Part shown: positions 4,320 to 40,536 of the stretch, one piece after another | Layout of the letters: each line of letters starts with the position of its first letter | How positions within the stretch are numbered: position 1 is the stretch's first letter | From: Vectrevirus LI10P3 | Sequence record: OZ035798.1 | Strand: one strand, 5' to 3' | Length of the DNA: 44,918 nucleotides | Made by a program: the position numbers and the translations under genes | The notes under the pieces: model-generated | Seen by the model: the letters and a program-made list of their open reading frames with translations, nothing else | Told to the model about the DNA's origin: nothing | The model's database searches: none

Positions 4320-4342
4320 ATTTACTGGACACTATAGAAGAG
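4320..4342 (+). promoter_or_regulatory. Phage RNAP promoter
   Basis: ATTTACTGGACACTATAGAAGAG, perfect consensus upstream of tailspike 1. Confidence 0.85.
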
Positions 4343-10240: not shown

Positions 10241-10336
10241 TTGGATGGTAGCTTCTTAGTCTGGATAGGTTAAACCTAGGGGACTCTCTTGAGTCTCCTA
10301 TAATGTAACCTAACTAACTAAATGAGGATTAATAAC

Positions 10337-10690
10337 ATGGCTATGTCTAATATGACTTACTCTCAGGTTTACAACACCGCTCATGCTGCATTAGTTGAAC
10401 GTATCTGGAATGATGATATTGATTGTATCGATAACGCACATGATGCAATCCATGAGGTAGCGGACAGTGCTGTACCAATCTATTATGCTGACATCTTCTC
10501 AGTAATGGCGAGTGAGGGTATTGATCACTTCTTCGAAGACTCCGGCCTGATGCCAGATACTAAGGATGTAACGGTCGTACTACAAGCCCGTATTTATGAA
10601 CAACTCACCATTGATTTATGGGAACGTGTTCAAGATATGATTGTTGCGTACACCACTTACGCTGAGTATTCAGAAGAAGAGGAGGAATAA
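10337..10690 (+). CDS. ocr: Ocr (gp0.3-like) DNA-mimic anti-restriction protein
   Basis: MAMSNMTY...[19 protein letters not shown]...[13 protein letters not shown]...[15 protein letters not shown]...EEEEE closely matches recalled T7 Ocr; 117 aa, highly acidic. Confidence 0.85.
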
Positions 10691-10880: not shown

Positions 10881-11108
10881 ATGGATTTAGATAGCATCAT
10901 TATGGCATTTGCTCTTATTGGCTTAAGCTGGTGCTCCTATCACCTTTACCGTGAGTTCTTATTTGATAAAGCTAAACGCAAACTAAGAAAGGAAGGCGGT
11001 AATTACCTTTGTGTAAGAGATGGGCTTGTAGAATACATTGCACCTAACGGCACGGAATGCGCCATTAGCAAAGATGCATTTATAGAAACGTGGCATTACA
11101 TCAAGTAA
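10881..11108 (+). CDS. Early small membrane protein (75 aa)
   Basis: AGGAG RBS; N-terminal hydrophobic segment IIMAFALIGLSWCSY. Confidence 0.55.
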   Translation: MDLDSIIMAFALIGLSWCSYHLYREFLFDKAKRKLRKEGGNYLCVRDGLVEYIAPNGTECAISKDAFIETWHYIK

Positions 11109-11171
11109 CTAGCCTATAGCCTACCTGAGTGGGCTATGTGATATTTACTTACACTATATAAGGTGACTATT

Positions 11172-12095
11172 ATGACTACTGAAAACACCCTCCTGTCTGT
11201 TCGTGAAGCTGCAACCGCTGAGATCAAGCAACACTTAGACAATATCGGCACTTCTTACATCAAAGTTGGCGCTTGTCTTAATGAGTTACGCGGTGACTTT
11301 GAAGGTCAAAAAGACTTTTTGGCTTATGTAGAATCAGAATTTGGAATCAAGAAAGCACAATGCTACAAGCTGATGAGTGTAGCCCGTGTCTTTGAAGGAG
11401 ACGAACGCTTTAAAGGTGTGGCTATGCGTGTAATGCTGGCGCTTGTTCCTTTCGCTGATGAAAATATAATCATGGAGAAGGCCGCAGAACTCGCCGCAGA
11501 GGGCAAGCTGGACACTAACGCCGTAAACGCCCTGATTGATCCTAAGAAAGAGACAAAGGCCGAGACGGTACAATCTAAGGTTGAGTCGGTAAAACCGCAG
11601 GAGAACGCGACTGAGGCCGCAGAAACTATGCAAGGACATGCAACCTTTGAGGATTTCATCTTAGAGAAGGCGAAAGAGGATTTACAAAGTGTGCCGCCAG
11701 TAAGTGAGTCGGGTAACGACGAATCCGCACCGTGGGAAGATGAAAGCAAGCCGGAAGACACAAAGGCAGCGCCACGGGATAACACGGCTAATACTGAGAA
11801 TGCCGCTATTGCTGGTCTGCTGGCACAAATTAAAGCACTGACTGAGCAATTACAGGCAGCTAATGACCGCATTGCCTCCTTAAGCAGCGCACGCGAAAGC
11901 AAGAAAGCAGCCGCGCCTATGCTGCCGCAATTCAAATCTTCCTGCTTCTATGCTCGCTTAGGTTTAAGCGCTGAGGAGGCAACGAAGAAAACAGCAGTTA
12001 ACAAGGCACGCCGCGAACTGGTTAAGCTAGGCTACGGCGAAGGCCATGAAGCATGGCCCTTAATCTCTGAGGCAGTAGAAGAATTAACTAAGTAA
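11172..12095 (+). CDS. Early hypothetical protein with predicted N-terminal helical domain and Ala/Glu/Lys-rich C-terminal region
   Basis: 307 aa from ATG 11172; low-complexity charged middle and C-terminal heptad-like region; occupies the slot of T7 gene 0.7 but shows no kinase motifs. Confidence 0.6.
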   Translation: MTTENTLLSVREAATAEIKQHLDNIGTSYIKVGACLNELRGDFEGQKDFLAYVESEFGIKKAQCYKLMSVARVFEGDERFKGVAMRVMLALVPFADENIIMEKAAELAAEGKLDTNAVNALIDPKKETKAETVQSKVESVKPQENATEAAETMQGHATFEDFILEKAKEDLQSVPPVSESGNDESAPWEDESKPEDTKAAPRDNTANTENAAIAGLLAQIKALTEQLQAANDRIASLSSARESKKAAAPMLPQFKSSCFYARLGLSAEEATKKTAVNKARRELVKLGYGEGHEAWPLISEAVEELTK

Positions 12096-12158
12096 CCCTA
12101 TCGGTGGCATCTTATTAGGTGTCACCTATTAAGGTTTCTTTCACTAGGAGTAAACAAG

Positions 12159-14786
12159 ATGCAAGACCTACACGCTATTCAACTTCAACTTGAAGAAGAA
12201 ATGTTTAACGGCGGTATCCGTCGCTTTGAAGCGGACCAACAACGCCAGATTGCATCCGGTAATGAATCAGACACGGCATGGAATCGCCGCTTATTGTCCG
12301 AGTTAATCGCGCCAATGGCTGAAGGTATTCAGGCTTATAAGGAAGAGTACGAAGGCAAGCGCGGTCGTGCACCACGTGCATTGGCTTTCATTAACTGCGT
12401 AGAAAATGAAGTGGCAGCGTATATCACGATGAAGATCGTAATGGATATGCTTAACACTGATGTAACCTTGCAAGCTATCGCTATGAATGTAGCTGACCGC
12501 ATTGAGGACCAAGTGCGCTTCAGTAAACTAGAAGGCCATGCAGCTAAATATTTTGAGAAGGTCAAGAAGTCACTTAAGGCAAGTAAGACTAAATCATATC
12601 GCCATGCGCACAACGTAGCGGTCGTGGCTGAGAAGTCAGTAGCTGACCGTGACGCTGATTTCTCTCGCTGGGAAGCGTGGCCTAAAGATACCTTGCTACA
12701 AATTGGGATGACCTTGCTTGAAATCTTAGAGAATAGCGTATTCTTCAACGGGCAACCTGTCTTCCTCCGCACCTTGCGCACTAATGGCGGCAAACATGGT
12801 GTTTACTACCTACAGACTAGCGAACACGTGGGTGAATGGATAACTGCATTTAAAGAGCACGTAGCTCAGCTGAGTCCAGCCTATGCGCCTTGCGTGATTC
12901 CTCCTCGTCCGTGGGTGTCACCTTTTAATGGCGGTTTTCACACTGAGAAGGTGGCAAGCCGTATTCGTCTGGTTAAAGGTAACCGCGAGCACGTCCGCAA
13001 GCTGACCAAAAAGCAAATGCCAGCGGTTTACAAGGCTGTTAACGCCTTACAAGCTACTAAGTGGCAGGTTAACAAGGAAGTATTGCAGGTAGTAGAAGAT
13101 GTTATTCGTCTAGACCTCGGTTATGGTGTACCTTCCTTTAAGCCGCTCATTGACCGCGAGAACAAACCAGCTAACCCTGTTCCTCTTGAGTTCCAGCACC
13201 TGCGAGGCCGTGAATTGAAAGAGATGCTAACACCGGAGCAATGGCAGGCCTTCATCAACTGGAAGGGTGAATGTACTAAGCTGTATACCGCTGAGACTAA
13301 GCGCGGCAGCAAGTCGGCGGCGACCGTCCGCATGGTAGGACAGGCCCGTAAATACAGCCAGTTTGACGCTATTTATTTTGTATATGCACTGGACAGCCGT
13401 TCACGCGTTTATGCGCAATCTAGCACGCTCTCGCCGCAATCAAACGACTTAGGCAAGGCATTGCTCCGTTTTACCGAAGGGCAGCGTCTTGATAGCGCTG
13501 AGGCGCTTAAGTGGTTTTTGGTGAACGGGGCGAATAACTGGGGTTGGGATAAGAAAACTTTTGACGTGCGCACCTCTAACGTGCTGGATGGCGAATTTCA
13601 AGACATGTGCCGCGACATTGCAGCCGATCCGCTGACCTTCACTCAATGGGTAAATGCCGACTCCCCTTACGGCTTCCTTGCATGGTGCTTTGAATATGCG
13701 CGTTATCTGGATGCACTGGATGAAGGCACGCAAGACCAATTCATGACGCATCTACCCGTCCATCAAGACGGTAGTTGCTCTGGTATCCAGCACTATAGCG
13801 CGATGTTACGCGATGAAGTAGGTGCGAAAGCAGTAAACCTTAAGCCCTCTGACTCTCCTCAAGATATTTATGGTGCCGTTGCGCAGGTAGTAATTCAGAA
13901 GAACTATGCATACATGAATGCAGAGGATGCGGAAACCTTCACTTCTGGCAGCGTGACTTTAACAGGTGCGGAGCTGCGTAGTATGGCTAGTGCGTGGGAT
14001 ATGATAGGAATCACTCGCGGCCTGACCAAAAAGCCCGTAATGACACTACCTTATGGCAGCACACGTCTAACCTGCCGTGAGTCAGTGATTGATTATATCG
14101 TTGATTTAGAAGAAAAAGAGGCCCAACGGGCTATTGCGGAAGGGCGTACCGCCAATCCTGTACACCCTTTTGATAATGACCGTAAGGACAGCCTGACACC
14201 TAGCGCAGCTTATAACTATATGACAGCTTTAATCTGGCCTTCTATTTCGGAAGTGGTTAAAGCTCCTATAGTGGCAATGAAAATGATTCGTCAGCTTGCA
14301 CGTTTCGCAGCTAAAAGGAATGAAGGCTTAGAGTACACCTTGCCTACTGGCTTCATCTTGCAACAAAAGATAATGGCGACAGATATGCTCCGCGTATCTA
14401 CTTGCTTGATGGGAGAAATCAAGATGAGTCTACAGATTGAAACGGACGTAGTGGATGAAACGGCTATGATGGGCGCTGCTGCCCCTAACTTTGTGCACGG
14501 TCATGATGCCAGTCACCTTATCTTAACGGTCTGCGACCTTGTTGATAAAGGGATTACATCTATCGCAGTAATTCATGATTCTTTTGGCACTCATGCAGGT
14601 CGCACCGCAGACCTACGTGATAGTCTAAGGGCAGAAATGGTGAAGATGTATCAAGGCCGTAACGCTCTGCAAAGCCTGTTAGATGAGCATGAAGAACGCT
14701 GGTTAGTAGACACCGGAATCCAAGTGCCAGAGCAAGGAGAGTTTGACCTTAACGAAATCTTAGTATCTGACTATTGCTTCGCATAA
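12159..14786 (+). CDS. Single-subunit DNA-dependent RNA polymerase (T7/SP6 gene 1-like)
   Basis: 875 aa; [52 protein letters not shown] and HDSFGTHAG motifs; C-terminal ...CFA. Confidence 0.95.
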
Positions 14787-15243: not shown

Positions 15244-17232
15244 ATGGCTATTATTCAGAATGTACCGTGTCCTGCCTGTCAAAAGAATGGACATGATATT
15301 ACTGGCAACCATCTTATGATATTTGAGGATGGCGCTGGTTACTGTAACCGTGGTCACTTCCATGATAATGGGAAGCCTTATTACCATAAGCCAGAGGGTG
15401 GCATCGAGATAACCGAGTTACCTATTACTGGCAATATCAAATATACACCTTCTCAATTCAAAGAAATGGAGAAGGAAGGGAAGATAAGCGACCCTAAGCT
15501 ACGCGCCATCGCTCTTGGTGGTATGCGTATGAAAGACCGTTGGGAGGTCATGAATGAGCAAGAAAGGGCAGACCAAGAAGCAGAGTGGAAACTTGATGTT
15601 GAATGGTTCCTCACGCTTAAGCGTAAGAACCTTGTATCCCGTCACATTCGAGGTGACATCGCAGCAATGTACGATGTGCGCGTTGGACACGATGAAGAGG
15701 GAAGAGTCAACCGTCACTATTATCCACGATATGAAAAGGGTGTGCTTGTTGGGGCAAAATGCCGGACGTTGCCGAAGGATTTTAAGTTCGGACACCTAGG
15801 TAAACTCTTTGGTATGCAAGATCTTTTCGGTATGAACACTTTGTCTCACGTGTTAGACAAGGGAAGACGAAAGGATTGCTTGCTTATTGTAGGCGGTGAA
15901 CTTGATGCACTAGCAGCGCAGCAGATGCTCCTTGATTCTGCCAAGGGTACTAAGTGGGAAGGCCAGCCATACCATGTATGGTCTGTCAACAAAGGCGAGT
16001 CTTGTCTTGAAGAGATAGTGCAAAACCGTGAGCATATCGCCCAATTCAAGAAGATTATATGGGGTTTTGATGGAGATGAGGTAGGGCAGAAGCAGAATCA
16101 GCAAGCGGCTCGCCTGTTTCCTGGCAAATCCTATATCCTTGAATACCCCTCTGGTTGCAAAGATGCTAACAAGGCATTGATGGCTGGCAAGGCCAAAGAG
16201 TTTGTTGATGCATGGTTTAATGCCAAGTCATCTGATGAAGTCTTTGGTAGCCAGATTAAATCTATCGCCTCTCAAAGGGATAAGCTCAAGGCTGCACGTC
16301 CAGAGCAAGGACTATCATGGCCTTGGCCTAAGCTGAACAAGGTAACGCTAGGTATTCGTAAGAACCAACTTATCATTGTAGGCGCAGGCTCTGGTGTAGG
16401 TAAGACTGAGTTCCTTCGTGAAGTAGTTAAGCACCTCATTGAAGAACACGGTGAATCTGTAGGCATCATTTCTACAGAAGACCCGATGGTCAAGGTGTCC
16501 CGTGCTTTTATCGGCAAGTGGATTGATAAGCGTATTGAGTTACCGCCAACCAACGACCCTAAAGAAGACGGATACCGTGAGGTGTTCGACTACACCGAGG
16601 AAGAAGCTAACGCCGCCATTGATTATGTAGCTGATACAGGTAAGCTGTTTGTAGCTGACCTAGAGGGTGACTATTCGATGGAAAAGGTAGAGCAAACTTG
16701 CCTAGAGTTTGAGGCTATGGGTATTTCTAATATCATCATTGATAACTTAACGGGGATTAAATTAGATGAGCGTGCTTTTGGTGGGAAGGTTGGTGCACTT
16801 GATGAATGCGTCAAGCGGATTGGTACTATCAAAGACCGACACCCGGTTACTATATTCCTTGTATCACACCTTACACGTCCTCCGGCAAACCGTACCCAAC
16901 ACGAAGAAGGTGGCGAAGTTATCCTTTCTGACTTCCGAGGCTCAGGAGCTATCGGATTCTGGGCATCTTACGCCTTGGGGATTGAGCGTAACACAAGAGC
17001 TGAAACGCTTGATGAAAGAACTACCACGTACATCTCATGTGTCAAAGACCGCGACCAAGGTATCTGGACTGGAACCAAGGTCATGCTTAAGGGTGACATT
17101 CAAACCGGACGTTTAATGGAACCACAAGCCCGTACTAAGTCATTTGATACAGGTGAAGCAAGGCAACAAGAAGTACCAGATTTACCGGACACTATAGAAG
17201 AGACTAACTTCGATGAAGAAAGTGAGTTCTGA
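15244..17232 (+). CDS. DNA primase/helicase (gp4-like)
   Basis: N-terminal zinc-binding CPACQ...CNRGH; Walker A GAGSGVGKT; acidic C-terminus FDEESEF. Confidence 0.9.
   Translation: MAIIQNVPCPACQKNGHDITGNHLMIFEDGAGYCNRGHFHDNGKPYYHKPEGGIEITELPITGNIKYTPSQFKEMEKEGKISDPKLRAIALGGMRMKDRWEVMNEQERADQEAEWKLDVEWFLTLKRKNLVSRHIRGDIAAMYDVRVGHDEEGRVNRHYYPRYEKGVLVGAKCRTLPKDFKFGHLGKLFGMQDLFGMNTLSHVLDKGRRKDCLLIVGGELDALAAQQMLLDSAKGTKWEGQPYHVWSVNKGESCLEEIVQNREHIAQFKKIIWGFDGDEVGQKQNQQAARLFPGKSYILEYPSGCKDANKALMAGKAKEFVDAWFNAKSSDEVFGSQIKSIASQRDKLKAARPEQGLSWPWPKLNKVTLGIRKNQLIIVGAGSGVGKTEFLREVVKHLIEEHGESVGIISTEDPMVKVSRAFIGKWIDKRIELPPTNDPKEDGYREVFDYTEEEANAAIDYVADTGKLFVADLEGDYSMEKVEQTCLEFEAMGISNIIIDNLTGIKLDERAFGGKVGALDECVKRIGTIKDRHPVTIFLVSHLTRPPANRTQHEEGGEVILSDFRGSGAIGFWASYALGIERNTRAETLDERTTTYISCVKDRDQGIWTGTKVMLKGDIQTGRLMEPQARTKSFDTGEARQQEVPDLPDTIEETNFDEESEF
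17180..17202 (+). promoter_or_regulatory. Phage RNAP promoter inside the helicase 3' end
   Basis: ATTTACCGGACACTATAGAAGAG. Confidence 0.6.
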
Positions 17233-18552: not shown

Positions 18553-18757
18553 ATTAAGCAAGGTTTGCTCTTGCGGTAAAGGTTATCGCAGTCGTATTGA
18601 TGGTAAGTGTGGGCATTGCAGGTCTAAGAAAGAGGCTGCTTTGTTTGATAAGTACCACAATGAATTAGCATATAACTATCCTCATCTAACACCTAATTCT
18701 TTATTAGGACTTGGTTATAGGGTTAAATACTTTGGAGCAATCTATGAAATCAATTGA
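18539..18757 (+). CDS. Small zinc-ribbon-like protein (72 aa)
   Basis: CSCGKGYRSRIDGKCGHC; overlaps the DNA polymerase start. Confidence 0.45.
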   Translation: MKTIKLSKVCSCGKGYRSRIDGKCGHCRSKKEAALFDKYHNELAYNYPHLTPNSLLGLGYRVKYFGAIYEIN

Positions 18758-21290
18758 TTGGAAGAAGGAGGCAGAAGGTCGTATCCTCGTGATGGATGCG
18801 GAAGCTAAAGGACTCCTTGACGCTATCCGATATGGACACCGTGAAGATGTGCATATCATTTGCTGCATGGATTTGCTTACTACCGAGGAGTTTCTCTTCT
18901 TTGACCCGTATGAGATGCGTGACCCTGAAGCAAGAGAACGCCTGAAGGAATGGGAAGGTCATCAAGACGGAACCTTGGTTGATGGTGTTAACTTCCTGAA
19001 GCATTGTGAAGCTATTGTGTCACAGAACTTCCTAGGGTATGACGGACTTCTCTTTGAGAAAGCATTCCCTGATATTTGGAAAGGCTTTAACTATACCGAG
19101 AAGCGCGGTAAGGGCAGACTCCGTGCTGACCTGTGTCCGGTGCGAGTCATGGATACGCTGGTGATGAGTCGCCTGTTAAACCCCGATAGACGCCTTCCTC
19201 CGCAAGCATATGCCAAAGGTATGGGTAACGTCGCCCCTCACTCAATTGAGGCGCACGGCATCCGTATAGGCCGCTATAAACCGGAGAACGAGGACTGGTC
19301 TAAACTAACTGACCACATGGTTCACCGTGTACGTGAGGACGTGGCGATTGGTCGTGACTTGTTCCTCTGGCTCTTTAACGGGGAATGGATGGAGCACAAA
19401 CGCCGTGGCGTGAATAAACGCACTGGCCTAGGTATTGAGACAGCCTTCCACATGGAGTCCATTGTGGCGCTGGAGATGAGCCGTCAGGCAGAGCGTGGAT
19501 TCCGTCTGGATATTGACAAAGCACTAGCGCGATGCGAAGAACTGGACGCTAAGATTGACGAGACAGTCGCAGCGTTCCGCCCTCACATGCCTATGCGTAT
19601 CAAGTCTAAGCCTTTTAAACCGGAAGAAAAGAATGAAGTATGCCAACGCGCAAATGAGTATGGAGCTAGCAACAATATACCTACTGTCCTTGACCCCTCA
19701 CACTTTCTTCATGCCGAGAGACGAGGAGATCGCAAGACAGTATGGAGTGTCACTACTAAGTCTGGTGATTGGTCGGCTAGTGTCAAGAAAGACTTTCCTC
19801 ACCTTAGAGGAAACCGTAATGACACGCCAAGCATCAAGTGGATTGGCGCTTACTCGCCTGTTACTTTCGAAGAGATTCCCTTGGGTAACAGGGATACAGT
19901 TAAGCAAGTGCTCTATGAGTATGGATGGAAAGGTGTTGAATTTAACGATACCGAGCAAGCTCATCTCGATGAGCACGGAGTGTTACCAAAACCTTGGAGT
20001 GGTAAGATAAATGAAAAGTCCCTCACTTTATGGCAAGAAAGAGCCGCACGTGAAGGTAAAACAGTCCCTGATTGGTGCTTGGGTATCGCTGCATGGTACA
20101 TACTCGTATCCCGTCGTGGTCAGATACTCAACCGTGGTGACGTTGAAGCCTTCAACGAGAAGGGAACGTGGCCCTCGCAGGCTGGTGTACGAAAGTGTCG
20201 CGGCCTTGTACCTGTAGCATTCAACAAGGAGCTAGGAATCAATGCGCAGCAATACTACGAGAGGTACGGATGTTGGCCTACGTCTGACAAAGATGACGGA
20301 GAGTGGCGTGTTCCAGCTGTTGCTATTAGTATTGGCACTTCTACGTTCCGTATGCGTCATCGTAATGTGGTTAATATTCCTGCCCGTGGCTTGTATCCTT
20401 TACGTGATTTATTCATAGCAGGGAAAGGCAAGCTAATCCTTGGTTGTGACGGTGCAGGTCTTGAACTGCGTGTCCTGTCTCACTTCATGAATGACCCTGA
20501 GTACCAAGAGATTGTACTGCACGGTGATATTCATACGCATAACCAGATGAAGGCTGGTCTTCCTAAGCGTGATATGGCGAAGACGTTTATATACGCCTTC
20601 CTCTATGGTTCTGGTATAGCCAACCTTGCAGCAGTCTGCGGTGTTACTGAGGAAGAAATGAAGGAAGTTGTGGCAAGATTCGAGATTGAACTACCGTCTC
20701 TTGCACGTCTTCGTGAGAATGTTATCGCACAAGGTAACAAGTTTGGCTACCTGCAAGCACCTGATGGGCATTGGGGTCGCATCCGCATGTCTGGTGGTGA
20801 ACTTAAAGAGCACACGATGCTTAACGTATTACTCCAGATGACTGGCTCTTTGTGTATGAAATATGCACTAGTCAAGGCATTTGCAGTAATGCGCAAGGAA
20901 GGTGTAGCTTTGGATGCTATGGGAAATCCTTGTGGTGTGGCTAACGTGCATGATGAAATCCAGATGGAAGTTCCTGAAGAGGAGGTCTTGTATCTTAACT
21001 ACGACCTACCTTTCACCTTAGATGGGTTCGAAACAGAGAAGGCTGCTGTGAAAGCAGTTTTCGATGCAGAGGAGAAACGTGTTCATGTGGATTCTGAAGG
21101 ACGTATGTGGTCTGCTGCAAACCTCGTTAGCGTTGATGCTGATGCTGGTGTATTGCATTGCCAGCGCCGTTATCACCGTGCAGGTCATATCATTGCCGAC
21201 GCCATGACTTGGGCAGGGCAGTATCTGAAGATGCGTTGCCCGATGGCAGGAGAATATAAGATTGGCGCAAGCTGGAAGGAAACACACTGA
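18744..21290 (+). CDS. DNA polymerase, family A (gp5-like)
   Basis: ATG 18744 with GGAG RBS; motif B RDMAKTFIYAFLYGSG; motif C VANVHDEIQMEV; N-terminal exonuclease-like LVMDAEAKG. Confidence 0.9.
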   Translation: MKSIDWKKEAEGRILVMDAEAKGLLDAIRYGHREDVHIICCMDLLTTEEFLFFDPYEMRDPEARERLKEWEGHQDGTLVDGVNFLKHCEAIVSQNFLGYDGLLFEKAFPDIWKGFNYTEKRGKGRLRADLCPVRVMDTLVMSRLLNPDRRLPPQAYAKGMGNVAPHSIEAHGIRIGRYKPENEDWSKLTDHMVHRVREDVAIGRDLFLWLFNGEWMEHKRRGVNKRTGLGIETAFHMESIVALEMSRQAERGFRLDIDKALARCEELDAKIDETVAAFRPHMPMRIKSKPFKPEEKNEVCQRANEYGASNNIPTVLDPSHFLHAERRGDRKTVWSVTTKSGDWSASVKKDFPHLRGNRNDTPSIKWIGAYSPVTFEEIPLGNRDTVKQVLYEYGWKGVEFNDTEQAHLDEHGVLPKPWSGKINEKSLTLWQERAAREGKTVPDWCLGIAAWYILVSRRGQILNRGDVEAFNEKGTWPSQAGVRKCRGLVPVAFNKELGINAQQYYERYGCWPTSDKDDGEWRVPAVAISIGTSTFRMRHRNVVNIPARGLYPLRDLFIAGKGKLILGCDGAGLELRVLSHFMNDPEYQEIVLHGDIHTHNQMKAGLPKRDMAKTFIYAFLYGSGIANLAAVCGVTEEEMKEVVARFEIELPSLARLRENVIAQGNKFGYLQAPDGHWGRIRMSGGELKEHTMLNVLLQMTGSLCMKYALVKAFAVMRKEGVALDAMGNPCGVANVHDEIQMEVPEEEVLYLNYDLPFTLDGFETEKAAVKAVFDAEEKRVHVDSEGRMWSAANLVSVDADAGVLHCQRRYHRAGHIIADAMTWAGQYLKMRCPMAGEYKIGASWKETH

Positions 21291-21572: not shown

Positions 21573-21595
21573 ATTTACTGGACACTATAGAAGGA
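21573..21595 (+). promoter_or_regulatory. Phage RNAP promoter
   Basis: ATTTACTGGACACTATAGAAGGA, perfect consensus. Confidence 0.85.
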
Positions 21596-21659
21596 AAGCC
21601 TAGACAATCTAGGTTTATAAGGTAGTATAGGTAATTAAGTAAATATAGGAGATATAAAT

Positions 21660-22037
21660 ATGTCTATGGTAACTACTCTGGTATTCGTGGCTCAATACTT
21701 TCGTGGTCTGGCTAATAAGTTCAAGTCCAAGGCTATCAAAGCTATTGAGGCTCGCATCGAAGCAGTACAGGCAGAGCAAGTTAAAGTTGAAGAACATCGT
21801 AGTTCTCAAATGATTGACTGCCATAACCGCTACTATGCATCTCGTGATGACCTTAATGCACGCCAAGTCAAAGAGGTTGAAGATATGATGGCACGTCACC
21901 AGCAAGAGCGTGACAGCATGAAAGCTGAATTTGAAGAGAACAAGGCATCCATTGCTCTGGTACACCAATCTGCATCTGACAGTCTGAAGAAAGAGATTGT
22001 TATGCTTGAAATCGAACTGGACAACCTGACCAAATAA
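21660..22037 (+). CDS. Hypothetical coiled-coil protein (125 aa)
   Basis: AGGAG RBS; hydrophobic N-terminus then charged heptad-like sequence. Confidence 0.6.
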   Translation: MSMVTTLVFVAQYFRGLANKFKSKAIKAIEARIEAVQAEQVKVEEHRSSQMIDCHNRYYASRDDLNARQVKEVEDMMARHQQERDSMKAEFEENKASIALVHQSASDSLKKEIVMLEIELDNLTK

Positions 22038-22043
22038 GGAATT

Positions 22044-22343
22044 ATGATGGAAGAAGTAATTCAAGCTAAACATGTAGGTATCATTTTTCGTGATCTAGAG
22101 CAGCGTAAAGTTGCAGGTCACACTCGTCTGGCTAAAGAGGAAGACACCGCAATCACTACGGTAGAACAAGCAGATGCCTATCGTGGTCCGGAGTTCACTC
22201 AAGGTGAAACTTGTCACCAATTGAGCCTATCACTTTGTGACACTATGGCTATTGTAAATGTGCAAGAAGTCGAAGAGGGTGAGTGTGTCAGTTACATCTA
22301 CCCTTTAGATACTATTGCACGCATTAAGGTAATCCATAAGTAA
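22044..22343 (+). CDS. Hypothetical protein (99 aa)
   Basis: AAGGA RBS; compact ORF ending at the next promoter. Confidence 0.55.
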   Translation: MMEEVIQAKHVGIIFRDLEQRKVAGHTRLAKEEDTAITTVEQADAYRGPEFTQGETCHQLSLSLCDTMAIVNVQEVEEGECVSYIYPLDTIARIKVIHK

Positions 22344-22364
22344 TTACTGGACACTATAGAACAA
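22342..22364 (+). promoter_or_regulatory. Phage RNAP promoter
   Basis: AATTACTGGACACTATAGAACAA; followed by a structured ~140 nt leader. Confidence 0.75.
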
Positions 22365-22503
22365 TAGGTCGGCTTAGTTCGGCCTATGATTGTAAAGTGT
22401 TGAACCATTGTGCATCTTGCACAACCCGATACCGTATCGGGCTTTCTAGTGAGTACATGCTTGTGCTCAGTACAAAGCTAACTGACAATAGGAGACTAAA
22501 TAA

Positions 22504-23310
22504 ATGGCACGTGGTGATTTTGATTTTGGTGCTTCCGTATCTAAAGCTGAAGGTAAAGTCTTTAAGAACCCAGAAGTAGGTGATCATGAAGCAGTAATCT
22601 CTGGCATCATTCATGTTGGTTCCTTCCAAGACATCTTTAAGAAAGGTAATACCACTGAAGTTAAGAAGCCAGCAAACTTTGTTCTAGTTAAGATTGTCCT
22701 GATGGGCGACGATGACAAGAACGAAGATGATTCTCGCATGGAACAATGGATGGCTGTTCCTCTGAAGTCTGGTGATAAGGCAACACTGACTAAGTTCCTA
22801 AATGCAGTTGACCCTAAAGAGCTGCTTGGTGGTTTCGATGACTTCATCGGTGAATGCCTGACTGCAACTATGGTTGGCTCTGGCGACAAGAATGATGATG
22901 GTACTTTCAAGTATGTTAACTGGAAAGGCTTTGGCGGTATGCCTGATAAGTTGAAGAAGCTTGTACTGGCTCAGGTAGAAGAGGAAGGTCTGTCTATGAC
23001 AGGTCATATCACCTTCGACAAGCTGACCAAAGAAATCCTTGATGACATCCCAGCTAACTTGGTGCGTCAATACTTCCTTAATGAAACACCTCGTGGTAAG
23101 AACCTGTCTGTTGCTGGTTCTCACGTAGAAGCAATCATTAAAGCTGCTCGTGAAGAAGACCCAGAGTGGAAGAAAGCCAAGAAGAAAGATGACGAGGATG
23201 CTACTCCAGCTAATCGTAAATCTCTGGATACTGGTGAGTCTGTTCCACAGGAAGTACCTGAAGCAGAAGATACTCCTGCACCGGAGATGGATGAGGACGC
23301 GGAATATTAA
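22504..23310 (+). CDS. Single-stranded DNA-binding protein (gp2.5-like)
   Basis: 268 aa; acidic C-terminal tail ending in aromatic residue (...EMDEDAEY), as in T7 gp2.5; AGGAGA RBS. Confidence 0.65.
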   Translation: MARGDFDFGASVSKAEGKVFKNPEVGDHEAVISGIIHVGSFQDIFKKGNTTEVKKPANFVLVKIVLMGDDDKNEDDSRMEQWMAVPLKSGDKATLTKFLNAVDPKELLGGFDDFIGECLTATMVGSGDKNDDGTFKYVNWKGFGGMPDKLKKLVLAQVEEEGLSMTGHITFDKLTKEILDDIPANLVRQYFLNETPRGKNLSVAGSHVEAIIKAAREEDPEWKKAKKKDDEDATPANRKSLDTGESVPQEVPEAEDTPAPEMDEDAEY

Positions 23311-23319
23311 GGAGAAAGG

Positions 23320-23538
23320 ATGAAAGTACAAATCGTAACTCTGCACTGCAAGAAAGGTATCACAACGCTCGGAGGTAGCACTTTCCACTCTTTCTCCGAA
23401 GGGGAGATTTATGCTGACCTGCACTACATCTGGCGCGACGGACAGCACGTGGTGAACTACAGCGACCCAGCTACGGGGAAGCGCCACGGCGTATCGCTTC
23501 CGGCGCATGACATTGCTCAGGTGAACACAGTTTTATAA
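23320..23538 (+). CDS. Hypothetical protein (72 aa)
   Basis: GGAGAAAGG RBS. Confidence 0.5.
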   Translation: MKVQIVTLHCKKGITTLGGSTFHSFSEGEIYADLHYIWRDGQHVVNYSDPATGKRHGVSLPAHDIAQVNTVL

Positions 23539-23539
23539 A

Positions 23540-23555
23540 GTCTCACGTGTGAGAC
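23540..23555 (+). repeat. Conserved palindrome GTCTCACGTGTGAGAC, copy 5
   Basis: Perfect palindrome 15 nt upstream of the promoter at 23571. Confidence 0.65.
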
Positions 23556-23570
23556 AAATCGGTGTCCGGT

Positions 23571-23593
23571 ATTTACTGGACACTATAGAAGAG
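23571..23593 (+). promoter_or_regulatory. Phage RNAP promoter
   Basis: ATTTACTGGACACTATAGAAGAG, perfect consensus. Confidence 0.85.
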
Positions 23594-23642
23594 AAGAATT
23601 TTAATCGGCGATAATGCCACAACTAACAAAGGAGAATTTAAT

Positions 23643-24023
23643 ATGTTCAAGATTGAAACTATCGTAAACCGTGTTGTTAAAGGTGCTGCTCTGGTATCCG
23701 TTGAGTCTTTCATTATCGTCGATGAAGCTGATCAACTGGTAGCTGGTACTAAGGCTTACGATACCCGTGAAGAAGCTCAGGCTAAGATTGACAGCATGGG
23801 TAACTTCGCTGCTGGTCTGGAGTTCGCTCGCGCTTGCTTCCCTGAGCAGGCTGACAAAGCTCAGATTGGTAAGGCTAATATCGTAGCTGAATATCTGGAT
23901 TGGATTGCTGCTGGTAAGCCGGTGAAAGAAGTTAAGTCTGCTGAAGAAGCTGAATCTCAGGCAGTAGAAGAAGAAGTAGCTGCACCGGTAGATGCTCCGG
24001 TAAGCGAAGAGGAAGAGTTTTAA
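23643..24023 (+). CDS. Hypothetical protein (126 aa) with acidic C-terminal tail ending in Phe
   Basis: AAGGAGAA RBS; ends ...PVSEEEEF; codon usage looks like a highly expressed gene. Confidence 0.65.
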   Translation: MFKIETIVNRVVKGAALVSVESFIIVDEADQLVAGTKAYDTREEAQAKIDSMGNFAAGLEFARACFPEQADKAQIGKANIVAEYLDWIAAGKPVKEVKSAEEAESQAVEEEVAAPVDAPVSEEEEF

Positions 24024-24028
24024 TTGAT

Positions 24029-24061
24029 GCCCTGTCTGCCTTAGTGTAGGCAGGGTCTTTT
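24029..24061 (+). terminator. Terminator-like hairpin
   Basis: Imperfect GC-rich stem (CTGCC/GGCAG) followed by TCTTTT. Confidence 0.35.
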
Positions 24062-24087
24062 GCGTAATAGTTATTGGAGAATGAATT

Positions 24088-27334: not shown

Positions 27335-27508
27335 ATGGAAGGTAAACTGTATAGAGGGTACTTCGGTAACTTATATAAAGTAAGCTCTCGCGGTTTTGTA
27401 TTGACCTCTGATGATGAAGGTGCAATGTGGCACCTAAGTGCATATGGTTCTAACTTAGCACACTTTAAAGAGGCAATAGTCAAAGGTGTGATGAAGGAGG
27501 TGAAATGA
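27335..27508 (+). CDS. Hypothetical protein (57 aa)
   Basis: GAGGA RBS; couples to the ligase start. Confidence 0.4.
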   Translation: MEGKLYRGYFGNLYKVSSRGFVLTSDDEGAMWHLSAYGSNLAHFKEAIVKGVMKEVK

Positions 27509-28452
27509 ACATCTTCCAATTCCTAGGTCTTCCAGAAGACCACCGCAATCATCCATTCATGCTGGTGAAGCATCGCGGTGAAGTTCCTGAGAAGAAACTT
27601 ACTTTTCCATGTTATGCACAGGTGAAACGAGATGGAATATTCAGTGCTGTTGTGGTGCGCAATGATGGTGCTGTTGCCATCTTTGGTCGTACTGGTAAGA
27701 AGCTCGCAAATGTTGAATCCTTGGAAAAGACATTTAGTGTATTTCCTGTCGGGTTGTATCTTGGTGAGTTGCAATCTATGGCTGTTGATGTTTATCTTGA
27801 AGCTCTGTCAGGAGTGGTAAACCCTAATCGTACAGAGCCACTTGACTTCATAGGCCAGCAGATTAAAGACAACCTGTATATCGACTTCTTCGATATGTTA
27901 ACTATTAAGGCATTCCATGATGGATTCACTGATGTTTCTTATCTCAAACGTTACGATGCTTTACATCGCCGCATCGGCGCTCATCTTAGCGGGTACAACG
28001 CTATCCTTCCTATTACTCCTTGCCATAATGAGCGAGAAGTTGAAGCGTTTGCGCAAGAGCAGATAGACGCAGGCCGAGAAGGTGCGGTATTTAAACTTGA
28101 CGTGGAGTACGAAAGTGGGCACAAGGGCTATCGTCAAACGAAGATCGTTCGTATGGTATCTTACGACCTAACCTGTATTGGGTGGGAGGAAGGAAAAGGT
28201 AAGTATAAAGGTAAAGTAGCTAATTTAATCTTTAAATGGAAAGGTGGTAAGTCCGTTAAGGCTATGCTGGGGCGTGGCTGGTCACATGAGGATGCAGCAC
28301 AGATGTATCACGATATTAAACACGGTGGCGAACTAAACGTCATTGGGAAAATCTTCGCTGTTAAGGCGTTACAGGAATCTAGTAAGGGAGTTCTGAGACT
28401 TCCCAAGGTTTCTGAACTTAGGTTTGATAAGGAAGTCCCTGATGTCTTCTAA
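27505..28452 (+). CDS. ATP-dependent DNA ligase
   Basis: Adenylation motif I KRDG (AQVKRDGIF); 315 aa; GGAGGTG RBS. Confidence 0.85.
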   Translation: MNIFQFLGLPEDHRNHPFMLVKHRGEVPEKKLTFPCYAQVKRDGIFSAVVVRNDGAVAIFGRTGKKLANVESLEKTFSVFPVGLYLGELQSMAVDVYLEALSGVVNPNRTEPLDFIGQQIKDNLYIDFFDMLTIKAFHDGFTDVSYLKRYDALHRRIGAHLSGYNAILPITPCHNEREVEAFAQEQIDAGREGAVFKLDVEYESGHKGYRQTKIVRMVSYDLTCIGWEEGKGKYKGKVANLIFKWKGGKSVKAMLGRGWSHEDAAQMYHDIKHGGELNVIGKIFAVKALQESSKGVLRLPKVSELRFDKEVPDVF

Positions 28453-28927
28453 TCCAAATTATCGAAAACCACCTCGTACACCGCCAAGACCACTTGCCTA
28501 CTGTCCTTTTACTGGAAAGCTTTTCCGTAAGTTCAAAGATGGCTGGAGAGAAACAGGACTTAGCAGAAAGAGTGATGGATATTTACAGTGTAAAGTCGAT
28601 GGTAAGACTGTAAGTGTTCATGTTTTAGCAATGAATATGATGGGTTATGACACTACCGGCTTTACAGTAGATCACATAAATCATATACGCTGGGATAATA
28701 GGTTTATTAATCTACGTCTATTATCTCATAAAGATAATTGTTTAAATAGAGAGGCGATACATATAAGTAAGCTGCCGAGTGGTAACTACAGAGCGCGATG
28801 TGGAAATGTTCATCTTGGCGTATTTGAGGATAAGTTACTTGCTCGTGGTGCTATCCTATGGTATCGCCATAGGAGATTTAATAATGTTAAATTCAATGAA
28901 GGCAACGCGTGCCGTAGAAGTAGCTGA
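28442..28927 (+). CDS. HNH endonuclease
   Basis: VDHINHIRWDNRFINLRLLSHKDN motif; overlaps the ligase stop. Confidence 0.75.
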   Translation: MSSNPNYRKPPRTPPRPLAYCPFTGKLFRKFKDGWRETGLSRKSDGYLQCKVDGKTVSVHVLAMNMMGYDTTGFTVDHINHIRWDNRFINLRLLSHKDNCLNREAIHISKLPSGNYRARCGNVHLGVFEDKLLARGAILWYRHRRFNNVKFNEGNACRRSS

Positions 28928-29078
28928 AGCTATATTTGAAACTCTATCCTGTGGCATGGAAGTGCCATATACTTTACTGGCTGATGCAGAAGCGCTTGGT
29001 CTTTCTGTAGAAGCTATCCAAGAGAAGGTTGACGAATTATATGGTACAGACGAAGAAGAAACCGACGATTTCATTTGA
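28884..29078 (+). CDS. Hypothetical small acidic protein (64 aa)
   Basis: GGAG RBS; ends ...TDEEETDDFI; start uncertain. Confidence 0.3.
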   Translation: MLNSMKATRAVEVAEAIFETLSCGMEVPYTLLADAEALGLSVEAIQEKVDELYGTDEEETDDFI

Positions 29079-37588: not shown

Positions 37589-40536
37589 TGGCAATTGAGC
37601 GACAAGCAGTACAAGGTCTGCCACAAGTGCAGGCCACTTCTCCTAATGTCATGACCTTTGCACCTCAGCGAGTTGGAGGTGTGGAGGCTGGCGTAGCTTC
37701 TACCTCCGGTAGTCGATTTATCGAAGACCTTATTCGAGCAGCCAGTAGTGTAGCTGATGTAACCACTGGTATCCTTAATCAAAAGATTGAGGAAGATAAG
37801 GTTGTTCAAATGGAACGGGCATATAACGGATTAATGCCTTCTGAGGATGCAACTCGTGGTGGCGCTCGTGCTAACATGCTTGTCAAAGCTCAACTGCTAG
37901 CTAATGATGAAGCAGCACGAATGAAAGACATGGCTACTCGTTTCCAAGGAACGGATGACGAGTGGACACAACTTATGGTTGACTCTCGTAATGAGATGCA
38001 GAATAAGCTGTTCCAGCAATACCCTGAGTTGCAAGGTGACAAAGATACTATGCGTATGGTCACTAATGTCTTCCAAGAACAGCAGCCTCAGATTTGGGCT
38101 ACACGAACCCAGCATAAACTTGACCGTGAACAAGCAGACCGTGAGGATACCTTTGACGGTCGAGTGGCTTCTACTTGGGATTCTAATATTGACCCTGAAG
38201 CCTCTGGCTATGCTTTACAGGAACGAATCCGCGAAGGTCTTACTCAAGGATTACTACCTGAACAGATGCACAAGAAGTTAGTCCAGCGAGCAATTTCACT
38301 TGCACAAGGCGGTGATGTTAGCATGGCTGAAGCCCTGAAGTATGTGAAGGACGATAAGGGTGTTTCTGTTTATGCTAAGAATCCACAGCTTATCACAGCC
38401 ATCACTAGTGGTAATGCAGTTTGGGCTAGGAATAATGTAGCTGATGTAACTCGTATGTCTTTCGAAGTTAAAGAATCCTACCTTGCAGGTGATTTAACTG
38501 ATGAAGAATTGTTGGAACGAGCACAGCACATTAATAATCTGACAGGTAACTCTGTCTTCTCTAATCCAGAGCTAGAGGCACTGATGCGCCAACGGGCTAA
38601 GCAGAATGCAGAGCTAGGTGCAATGCAGGATATGCGACGTGAGCTTTACTCCGACCGCCTGACTGGCTTCCAAGGTAAGACTGATAAAGAGAAGAAGGCT
38701 TACATTGATGTTATCAAACAGGATAGCCAACTTTATGCAGACCAGCAAATCAAACAACGTGGCTTGGACCCTTACAGTCAAGAGGCTGAAGCTATTCGTG
38801 GTGCAGTGGAAGTGCAGCGCCTGCAATTCATGAACTCCAAAGGCTTAGTGGATGATACCTTTGAGTCTCGTATCAAAGCCATGGAATCTATGCTATCGCC
38901 TGAGCACTTTGCCAAGGGCGAACCACAGGAGTTGATGACTATTCGCCAGTTGTGGGAACAGTTGCCAGAAGAGAGCCGAGGTGTCTTTGGTGACACGGTG
39001 AATGGCTACATGGATAACTACAACACTGCACTACAAATGGGAGAGACACCTTTGCAGGCTGCAAGGTTTGCGCGTGAAGCACAGCAGAAATTCTCTCGTA
39101 CTGAGAAGGAAACCAAGAAGTTCAACTCAGCTATTGGAGATGCACTGGATGAGGTATCTGGTGCTGGCTGGTTTGATGGTAAAACCGAAGTGTCAGACTT
39201 AGGTAAAGCTATTGCGGAAGAAGAGTTACGAGCTAAGGCCAATATGTTGTGGTCTAGTGGTATGCGTAACATGGATTCTATCAAGAAGGCTTTAATTACT
39301 TGGGGCAATAAACGCTACACTCAAACAGAGGATGCAAAGACTTCCGGTGGCTATTTCATTAAAGGTGATTACACTTCTGCATCTGATATGCTTATGTCAG
39401 TTGGGAAAGGCGTAAACCCTACCGATGTACCTCTGGCGCTTGGTAGGTATGTAGAAACACAGATGCCAGAATTGAAGAAGGAGCTTCAAGAGTGGGAAAC
39501 TAAAGATGATATATACATTGATTACAATGAACAGAAAGGAACTTTTGTGATTCGTGCTGGTGCAGCAGGTCGCCCTCTTTCTGGAGTAATCCCTGTAACC
39601 TCTTTAGATACTACTTCACTACTAGATTCTGCCTATCAGAAGAAAGTAGAGGAACGAGATAAAGGCGAGTATGTCCACCCGTATCGTACAGATATTGGTG
39701 CACAAGAGCCTATGCCAGCTAAACCAACTGCCAAAGATATTGGTAAATTTGGACTAGCTAACTTCCTCATGTCTTCTGCTTTTGCTTCTGGTGAGAATCT
39801 GCCTTCTAACTTCGAGATTAACTATCGAGGTAATATGCAACAATTCTATGACAAGCTAGCTATGGATGAGAATAAAGATAAAGTTGGCTTTAATAAGGCA
39901 ACTGGAACCTTTACTCCATATAAAGACGCTCGCGGTGAGTCTATCGGTTACGGTCATTTCTTAACGGAAGAAGAGAAGCGAAACGGGTATATTAAGATTG
40001 GTGATGAACTAGTTCCCTATCGAGGGTCTATGTCTCAGCTTACAGAGAGCAAGGCTCGCGCTCTTATGGAGCAAGATGCTAAGAAGCATGTGCCTCCTAC
40101 TCGTGACTGGAAGATTCCGTTTGACCAGATGCATCCTGCACAGCAACGTGGCTTGATGGATTTAACCTACAATTTAGGTAAAGGTGGAATCCAGAACTCA
40201 CCGCGTGCTTTTGCTGCATTCAAAGCTGGTAAGCTTACGGAAGGCTTTATCGAAATGCTGGGCACTGCATCAAGTGAAGGTAAGCGTATTCCTGGCCTAC
40301 TGAAGCGACGCGCTGAGGCATACAATATGGCATCTGCTGGTGGTGTGCCTAAGATTACCGAAGTGGAGACTCGTGAAGATGGCTCCATGTGGGTTAGGTT
40401 TGGTGGACCTATGCCAGCAGGTTCTGTCTCGGCATGGACTCATAAACGTATTGGCGCGGATGGTTGGTATCAGGTTTATGAGGCTGCACCTACCAAGTTA
40501 GCTAAAGGTTCTAAGGTAGGTAAATTTAAGTTGTAG
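37588..40536 (+). CDS. Internal virion (ejection) protein with C-terminal lysozyme-like domain
   Basis: 982 aa; region ~aa 780-930 (YKDARGESIGYGHFLTEEEK...GLMDLTYNLGKGG...KRRAEAYNM) resembles a T4-lysozyme-type (GH24) fold. Confidence 0.75.
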   Translation: MAIERQAVQGLPQVQATSPNVMTFAPQRVGGVEAGVASTSGSRFIEDLIRAASSVADVTTGILNQKIEEDKVVQMERAYNGLMPSEDATRGGARANMLVKAQLLANDEAARMKDMATRFQGTDDEWTQLMVDSRNEMQNKLFQQYPELQGDKDTMRMVTNVFQEQQPQIWATRTQHKLDREQADREDTFDGRVASTWDSNIDPEASGYALQERIREGLTQGLLPEQMHKKLVQRAISLAQGGDVSMAEALKYVKDDKGVSVYAKNPQLITAITSGNAVWARNNVADVTRMSFEVKESYLAGDLTDEELLERAQHINNLTGNSVFSNPELEALMRQRAKQNAELGAMQDMRRELYSDRLTGFQGKTDKEKKAYIDVIKQDSQLYADQQIKQRGLDPYSQEAEAIRGAVEVQRLQFMNSKGLVDDTFESRIKAMESMLSPEHFAKGEPQELMTIRQLWEQLPEESRGVFGDTVNGYMDNYNTALQMGETPLQAARFAREAQQKFSRTEKETKKFNSAIGDALDEVSGAGWFDGKTEVSDLGKAIAEEELRAKANMLWSSGMRNMDSIKKALITWGNKRYTQTEDAKTSGGYFIKGDYTSASDMLMSVGKGVNPTDVPLALGRYVETQMPELKKELQEWETKDDIYIDYNEQKGTFVIRAGAAGRPLSGVIPVTSLDTTSLLDSAYQKKVEERDKGEYVHPYRTDIGAQEPMPAKPTAKDIGKFGLANFLMSSAFASGENLPSNFEINYRGNMQQFYDKLAMDENKDKVGFNKATGTFTPYKDARGESIGYGHFLTEEEKRNGYIKIGDELVPYRGSMSQLTESKARALMEQDAKKHVPPTRDWKIPFDQMHPAQQRGLMDLTYNLGKGGIQNSPRAFAAFKAGKLTEGFIEMLGTASSEGKRIPGLLKRRAEAYNMASAGGVPKITEVETREDGSMWVRFGGPMPAGSVSAWTHKRIGADGWYQVYEAAPTKLAKGSKVGKFKL

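Follow-up and report, generated by a model that had tools for sequence, protein, structure and literature searches.

The stretch of DNA analysed here, referred to below as the window, is sequence record OZ035798.1 of Vectrevirus LI10P3. It is the complete 44,918-bp genome of an SP6/K1-5-like podophage of the genus Vectrevirus, subfamily Molineuxvirinae, and Escherichia phage vB-Eco-KMB47 is 99.7% identical to it over the 1.1 kb compared. The subject is one open reading frame (ORF) on the plus strand, 23643..24023, encoding a protein of 126 amino acids (aa) with the C-terminus ...PVSEEEEF. The ORF corresponds to gene 18 in the K1E/SP6 numbering (records AM084415 and AY370673), and its product is called gp18 below; in another SP6 numbering it is named 'gp20' (PMC4837284). 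All public records inspected annotate gp18 as hypothetical, except that of Klebsiella phage Kp7 ('putative ATPase'), and the paper on the SP6-like phage UAB_Phi78 enters the gp18 homologues as 'Unknown'. No published study of gp18 was found in the literature on SP6/K1-5/K1E, Molineuxvirinae, proteins binding single-stranded DNA (SSBs), acidic tails and phage gene-essentiality screens.

In all phages compared, the gp18 gene is located inside the block of DNA-metabolism genes. The order DNA polymerase, gp16, gp17, gp18, 5′–3′ exonuclease, endonuclease VII, phosphoesterase, kinase and ligase is conserved across subfamilies; the small gp17-like protein between gp16 and gp18 is present in most of these phages, not in all. 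The phyletic spread of gp16 (215 phage records) and gp18 (212) is alike and also matches the range of the SP6-type polymerase. Both proteins are absent from the more distant podophages recovered with the polymerase profile, where the helicase C-terminus is F or L after acidic residues.

The N-terminal domain of gp18 (residues 1–95, 23643..23927) comprises a beta-hairpin (residues 3–13 and 16–26) and three helices (42–51, 55–65 and 71–89). It is followed by a linker (residues 96–120, 23928..24002) that is acidic, predicted to be disordered, with a predicted local distance difference test score (pLDDT) of 31–55, and rich in Ala, Pro, Glu and Val. The protein ends in the tip S-E-E-E-E-F with a terminal aromatic residue (24003..24020). 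Together, residues 96–126 contain 12 D/E and one K/R, have an isoelectric point (pI) of 4.05 and a pLDDT below 55.

The tip is conserved to a degree that the linker, which differs in length and sequence among homologues, is not. Among the matches listed, a C-terminal EEEF is found in 120 of 120 close homologues, and distant homologues carry a [DE]-rich tip with a final F or Y. In a set of 36 family representatives sharing less than 70% identity, the last residue is aromatic in 24, and an aromatic residue lies within the last three positions in 27. Over the 27 residues that precede the tip, aromatics make up 2.3% of positions in the same set (22/972), which gives a roughly 30-fold enrichment at the last position. 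Short forms of 86–92 aa in distant lineages end in ETF, EDF or EEF. The tip is very probably a functional motif. In Proteus phage PM116, gp18 is split into a 107-aa domain ORF (15792..16115) and a 50-aa ORF (16187..16339) ending ...TSEEEEF; possible causes are a frameshift, an error in sequencing and a small insertion, and the tail coding sequence is kept.

Two other replication proteins of the window bear a tail of this type. The primase-helicase (15244..17232, 662 aa), whose DnaB-type helicase domain was confirmed by NCBIfam, ends NFDEESEF, with the tail FDEESEF encoded at 17209..17229 on the plus strand. The 268-aa gp16 (22504..23310) ends in EMDEDAEY (23284..23307, plus strand). The two strands of the window together hold 258 ORFs that are 40 aa or longer, and all of these were screened for a final F, Y or W, at least two acidic residues among the last eight and no basic residue among the last five. 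Four ORFs have such an end, namely the helicase, gp16, gp18 and the DNA ligase. Because so few ORFs fit and all of them encode replication proteins, the tails of gp18, helicase and gp16 are not a chance pattern. The first-pass annotation, made from the sequence of the window, had described these three C-termini and taken the gp18 tail to be of the same type as the other two; both statements hold, given the coordinates, the conservation of the tip and its retention against a variable linker.

The three tails were then compared in about 20 lineages with an SP6-type polymerase, represented by whole genomes or 20-kb segments, in which the helicase, gp16 and gp18 were located with hidden Markov models (HMMs). 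The sample covers Molineuxvirinae, Colwellvirinae, Gajwadongvirus, unclassified phages and metagenomic contigs, with Escherichia, Klebsiella, Proteus, Erwinia, Lelliottia, Edwardsiella, Vibrio, Aeromonas, Shewanella, Marinomonas and Pseudomonas as hosts. Nearly every lineage carries an acidic aromatic tail on all three proteins; the exceptions are the helicase of Pseudomonas phage Alpheus (...EEAKY) and gp18 of metagenomic contig L021, which has no aromatic tip.

The tips also change in concert. Given in the order helicase, gp16 and gp18, they are ESEF, DAEY and EEEF in the window, TQEF, EQEF and DEEF in Vibrio phage Vp670, and DGEF, DEEF and DETF in Escherichia phage ECBP5. All three end in Tyr in the Klebsiella phage Kp7 clade (EEESEY, DEGEEY and TEAEEY) and in Aeromonas phage MJG (GASY, EATY and DAAY). 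Aeromonas phage Tola, from the same host genus as MJG, has EREF, EDEF and DETF. A final Y was found in gp18 only where the helicase and gp16 also end in Y (two of two Y-ending gp18 lineages, against four Y-ending helicases in about 21 lineages; hypergeometric P of about 0.03 on a rough count). In the Pseudomonas phages of the genus Uliginvirus, the Phe is followed by one or two residues. The tips are KTFE, QTFD and ESFS in phage Njord, ETFD, EVFE and EAFEG in phage uligo, and AKY, EFGE and SFEG in phage Alpheus. The aromatic residue is displaced from the very end only in one genus of Pseudomonas phages, one Vibrio phage and one metagenomic lineage. Such concerted changes are what would be expected if the three tails fit one receptor, and, as far as sequence comparison can tell, they suggest that they do.

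Several other C-termini in these genomes resemble the tails in part. The ATP-dependent DNA ligase (27505..28452) carries a C-terminal D-[FY] a few residues past its R-x-D-K motif; it ends ...DKEVPDVF in the window, ...DKTTGDF in Alpheus, ...DKTQPDY in Erwinia phage phiEa1H and ...DKATPDY in Tola. The ligases of Kp7 and BD5 have no such end, and that of T7 ends ...NPQEKM. The ligase end may represent a fourth, shorter docking tip within the clade. A protein of about 65 aa encoded downstream of the ligase (28881..29078, the C-terminal part of ORF 28779..29078) has the C-terminus ...YGTDEEETDDFI; the homologue in PM116 is 55% identical and ends ...GEEETDYQF. Here too the tail is acidic and has an aromatic close to its end. 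A 122-aa ORF of the early region (10322..10690) ends EYSEEEEE, which is strongly acidic and, in contrast to the replication tails, has no terminal aromatic. Outside the replication genes, a 115-aa protein of Marinomonas phage CB5A, encoded in the position of the small terminase (38574..38921), ends ...FDDSEEDF. The primase-helicase is divided into two ORFs in Klebsiella phage RCIP0089 (2215..4477) and Vibrio phage JSF38 (2414..5170), and the C-terminal piece keeps ...DTDGEF. The DNA polymerase of phiEa1H (10946..13942) is annotated in two parts around an insertion, and an HNH gene lies directly downstream. The splits of the helicase and the polymerase look like mobile-element interruptions of replication genes.

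gp18 is encoded in a compact expression cassette. A phage RNA-polymerase promoter lies about 50 nucleotides (nt) upstream of the gp18 start on the same strand (23571..23593) and matches the consensus ATTTACTGGACACTATAGAAGAG at 23 of 23 positions. A scan of the genome returned eight matches with at most three mismatches, where none was expected, and only those at 4320 and 23571 are perfect. A Shine-Dalgarno sequence AAGGAG, read from the sequence, is located at 23629..23634, 8 nt before the ATG. Downstream, a hairpin with a T-run that resembles an intrinsic terminator occupies 24029..24062; its stem of 11 bp with a 6-nt loop (24029..24056) begins 6 nt past the stop codon, and the folding energy is −18.3 kcal/mol (z = −3.7). 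The earlier observation that the gene has its own perfect promoter and is followed by a hairpin was thus confirmed.

The same arrangement recurs in divergent phages. In seven of eight, a motif specific to the phage is found 60–70 nt upstream of gp18 (113 nt in ECBP5). This motif occurs in 6–10 copies per genome, including one before the capsid gene, and represents the promoter of the phage concerned. In all eight, the gp18 stop codon is followed by a GC-rich hairpin with a U-run. The promoter-gene-terminator cassette has thus been kept across subfamilies despite differing promoter sequences.

Two further promoters precede gp18 on the plus strand of the window, one before gene 15 (21573..21595, two mismatches) and one before gp16 (22342..22364, three mismatches). 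With the promoters at 21573, 22342 and 23571 stacked, transcription would accumulate over gp15–gp18 and be cut back before the exonuclease gene. Codon usage was measured as the fraction of E. coli optimal codons. By this measure, gp18 ranks first of the 43 genes of the window (0.756, compared with 0.676 for the capsid gene), and gp15, gp16 and gp17 rank second, fourth and fifth. gp18 is also at the top in ECBP5 (0.795 vs. 0.699 for the capsid gene) and PM116 (0.660 vs. 0.549). The region 21573..24062 is, judged by these signals, a high-expression island within the DNA-metabolism genes, and gp18 is very likely to be one of the most abundant proteins that the phage makes during infection. Such a predicted level of expression suggests a stoichiometric role, for example coating, buffering or titrating, over that of a catalytic protein or a 1:1 accessory.

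Profile searches place gp18 in an orphan family. PHROG 4429 ('unknown function') matches it over the full length (E = 2.3 × 10^−56, residues 1–126 against profile positions 1–121 of 121) and is the sole match; searches of Pfam, NCBIfam and PDB sequences with the single protein and with 29 family members gave only chance-level matches. The first-pass annotation had called gp18 a protein with no recognisable domain, which agrees with these results. With a word-indexed search, 212 relatives were obtained; an exhaustive HMM search through 1.84 billion cluster representatives yielded just 32 clusters at E ≤ 0.001. The members of these clusters are mostly proteins of about 90–150 aa, and the weakest matches include a few long ones of low complexity.

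The alpha/beta domain of about 95 aa is modelled by AlphaFold with a pLDDT of about 90. No significant structural relative of it was found in fold searches that left out the AlphaFold database (afdb50), and the BFVD viral models gave only a member of the same family. The first-pass annotation had proposed a structure prediction with an OB fold in mind; the confident model is not the five-stranded beta-barrel of an OB fold. The most conserved stretch of the domain in the family alignment is G58-L-E-F-A...K77-A-N-x-x-A82...W87...G91-K-P, and the most conserved surface is formed by the helical hairpin, not by the beta-strands. The net charge of the domain is −3, equal to that of the T7 gp2.5 core. 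The matches to the beta-beta-beta-alpha units of DUF1508/UPF0339 (YegP-like) are all sub-significant, cover only half of the domain, have no counterpart in Pfam and are functionally uninformative. A SAP/HeH-like or helix-hairpin-helix reading of the G-K-A-N-x-V-A-x-Y-L-x-W helix, considered by eye, was dropped for want of profile support.

gp16 had been described in the first-pass annotation as a gp2.5-like SSB, and this part of the description received no sequence or profile support. It resembles T7 gp2.5 in size (215-aa core), in pI (4.70 in both) and in the tail. Homology to gp2.5 was not detected by phmmer and hmmsearch against PDB sequences, nor by hhalign when eight gp16 sequences were compared with T7 gp2.5; with 24 representatives of gp16 and eight of gp2.5, hhalign gave a probability of 1%. 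The only family-level lead for gp16 is a sub-threshold match of residues 20–106 to NCBIfam NF046043 ('phage replication initiation protein, NGO0469 family'; E = 9.5 × 10^−4, 18.8 bits against a cut-off of 75). None of the SP6-type phages inspected has an annotated SSB.

The closest known parallel for the tails is found in T7. The docking partner there is gp5/thioredoxin, with basic patches in loops of the thioredoxin-binding domain as well as at the front. The tails of gp2.5 and gp4 anchor to basic patches on the DNA polymerase, the gp2.5 tail being held by the front patch K587/K589/R590/R591 (PMC12339929). The T7 proteins end ...DEDGDF (gp2.5) and ...NDTDF (gp4), and the DF end is present in eight of eight gp2.5 representatives. 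Each group has its own dialect, D-x-D-F on gp2.5 and gp4 in the T7 group versus mostly E-x-E-F/Y in the SP6 group; at the level of sequence, the T7-group dialect shows that tails within one phage group evolve together. As in T7, the tails of the SP6 group combine a disordered acidic segment with a terminal aromatic and occur on more than one replication protein per phage, and gp18 belongs to the same class of middle genes as gp4 and gp2.5. What differs is the bearer of the third tail, a small protein that is not a helicase and cannot be recognised as an SSB, and T7 has no gp18 homologue.

T7 gp5.5 and gp5.9, small proteins whose genes directly precede the gene 6 exonuclease, occupy a comparable place, since gp18 also lies between the DNA polymerase and the 5′–3′ exonuclease. 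Expression of gp5.5 is high, and gp5.9 acts as an acidic mimic of DNA. However, neither protein has sequence similarity to gp18, gp18 has no match to Pfam DUF2675, and their C-termini (...REVF and ...LNGTS) are not acidic aromatic tails. An Ocr/gp5.9-type DNA mimic, in which regularly spaced carboxylates on a folded surface imitate DNA, was likewise rejected as a model for gp18: no family match was obtained, and the acidic residues of gp18 are concentrated in the disordered tail, with a charge of only −3 on the folded domain. The bacterial SSB, with its C-terminal tip D-D-D-I-P-F (SSB-Ct), and T4 gp32, with its acidic C-domain, share with gp18 the sequence of folded domain, flexible linker and acidic tip, and in them the terminal Phe serves as an interaction hub. 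gp18 differs from them in having no OB fold and, in its tip S-E-E-E-E-F, no I-P-F triplet, and some gp18 lineages have a Tyr or an F followed by one or two residues where SSB-Ct has its Phe.

Taken together, these data are consistent with gp18 being a very abundant protein of the middle (DNA-metabolism) class in which a family-specific domain of about 95 aa is joined by a flexible acidic tether to an acidic, Phe- or Tyr-ended docking peptide. This peptide would bind at the same receptor site as the tails of the primase-helicase and gp16. On the evidence of co-variation, a single receptor for all three tails is probable. By analogy with T7 gp4 and gp2.5, the best single candidate for the receptor would be the phage DNA polymerase, which in the window is encoded at 18744..21290 and belongs to family A, although we hold this assignment only tentatively, at somewhat less than even chances. 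Docking would bring the N-terminal domain of gp18 to the replication or recombination machinery; alternatively, gp18 would share or exchange the site with the helicase and gp16. For the statement as a whole, that gp18 is an abundant replication accessory docking at the site of helicase and gp16, probably on the polymerase, we consider the chances to be evenly balanced. The first-pass annotation had proposed an undescribed replisome accessory or a competitor for the docking site on the polymerase, and this interpretation received partial support. A further reading, in which gp18 is no conventional subunit but acts as a free, over-produced docking tail on a small carrier domain and regulates the replisome by occupying the common receptor, is distinctly unlikely. 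In that case, the over-produced tail would serve as a buffer or a timer for the hand-offs among helicase, gp16 and polymerase, or would keep spare polymerases at hand for exchange.

Several observations weigh against the replication-accessory reading. The loop that forms the front patch of the T7 polymerase (K587–R591) is a gap in all seven SP6-type polymerases aligned, and the thioredoxin-binding region is replaced in SP6-type polymerases by a larger unrelated insertion with conserved basic residues. Because of this deletion and replacement, the T7 docking sites are not simply transferable, and their direct transfer was rejected. The independent co-variation events are few, about two changes from F to Y and about two extensions past the aromatic, and a shared host partner would be expected to produce the same pattern of co-variation. 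The aromatic tip is missing in the homologues P0135, P0137 and P0142 and in that of contig L021. Finally, expression apparently above that of the capsid gene exceeds the need of a 1:1 polymerase accessory; coating or titrating fits it better.

Another possibility is that gp18 itself is a non-OB SSB or DNA-coating protein, whose tail, as in SSBs, masks its own DNA-binding surface and recruits partners, gp16 then being something else, for example an annealing or initiation protein. The architecture of gp18, with a small domain, a disordered acidic linker and an aromatic tip, is that of bacterial SSB, T4 gp32 and T7 gp2.5, and the top codon adaptation, own promoter and terminator suit a stoichiometric need. 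An SSB is unannotated in all these phages, and gp16 offers no gp2.5 homology and only a weak match to NF046043. The domain charge, being the same as that of the gp2.5 core, does not exclude DNA binding. However, the confident model matches no known DNA-binding fold, OB or other; conservation is concentrated on the helical hairpin and not on the strands; and gp16 is closer to gp2.5 in size, pI and tail. The fold matches include two entries of BFVD that bear the name 'single stranded DNA binding protein', but at non-significant values (E = 0.1–0.35). We regard this explanation as unlikely. In another explanation, the tail would be a generic acidic, disordered solubility segment or 'entropic bristle' with no specific partner, and its terminal aromatic would be incidental. 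Acidic disordered C-termini are common in phage proteins, and ORF 10322..10690 with its EYSEEEEE end is one from the window; the invariance of the gp18 tip beside a varying linker, the roughly 30-fold enrichment of the last-position aromatic and the concerted changes with two other proteins make this explanation highly improbable.

The pattern of tip changes can also be read as pointing to the host. As a decoy, gp18 would use an SSB-like tail to block host proteins that dock on SSB, among them RecQ, ExoI, PriA and Pol III chi, or to weaken a defence system that senses the SSB tails of phages. Interaction hubs of SSBs generally work through acidic tails with a terminal Phe; those of T7 gp2.5, of the E. 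coli SSB and of T4 gp32 are reported to be partly interchangeable. A high abundance would suit a decoy. Tail changes that follow the host genus, as in the phages of Pseudomonas, Aeromonas and Klebsiella, could reflect a host partner. Nevertheless, the tips EEEF, ETF and AAY are not the near-universal bacterial D-D-D-I-P-F, and the Pseudomonas phages have a non-terminal aromatic (FE, FEG), whereas the pockets that bind SSB tips hold the terminal carboxylate. The gp18 tip tracks the helicase and gp16 tails of its own phage, and the gene stands among the middle replication genes, not the early genes of host takeover. A host-directed decoy is consequently quite improbable, and docking of gp18 at the helicase and gp16 site is preferred.

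The tail motif as a kind of device is already known. T7 provides the textbook minimal replisome, in which two acidic tails with a terminal Phe compete for the polymerase and coordination depends on this competition. The SP6/K1-5 group has supplied many isolates intended for therapy directed at K1 E. coli, Klebsiella and Salmonella, and to our knowledge neither the replisome nor the SSB of this group has been identified. A whole clade with a third tail-bearing and apparently top-expressed protein implies that the traffic of tails at the fork may involve more players than the T7 model has. In the literature searched, we found no description of such a tail on a third, orphan-fold and top-expressed protein across a large phage clade, of the co-variation of gp18 with the helicase and gp16 tails, or of the conserved single-gene cassette. 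If gp18 does act as a free competitor tail, it would be a motif-level competitor of a kind undescribed for any phage replisome. One peptide (SEEEEF), three proteins and one candidate receptor offer a starting handle on an unstudied replisome, and a first testable function is proposed for PHROG 4429. As a correction, gp16, the assumed 'gp2.5-like SSB' of these phages, is a protein with no detectable gp2.5 homology.

Some features of the neighbourhood and of the window as a whole were recorded in addition. In Colwellvirinae, a protein of 91–93 aa is encoded between gp16 and gp18 (14373..14654 in L005) and is 42% identical (E = 5 × 10^−19) to gp15.5 of the window (22044..22343); its C-terminal half also aligns with gp17 of the window (23320..23538). 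Thus, two related small proteins, gp15.5 and gp17, flank gp16 in the window. The gene 15 product, a 125-aa coiled-coil protein, is mis-annotated as 'polysaccharide chain length determinant' in relatives. The RNA polymerase gene is located at 12159..14786. The order of the genome is a circular permutation relative to that of its GenBank relatives, with presumed genes of the late or packaging type at both ends.

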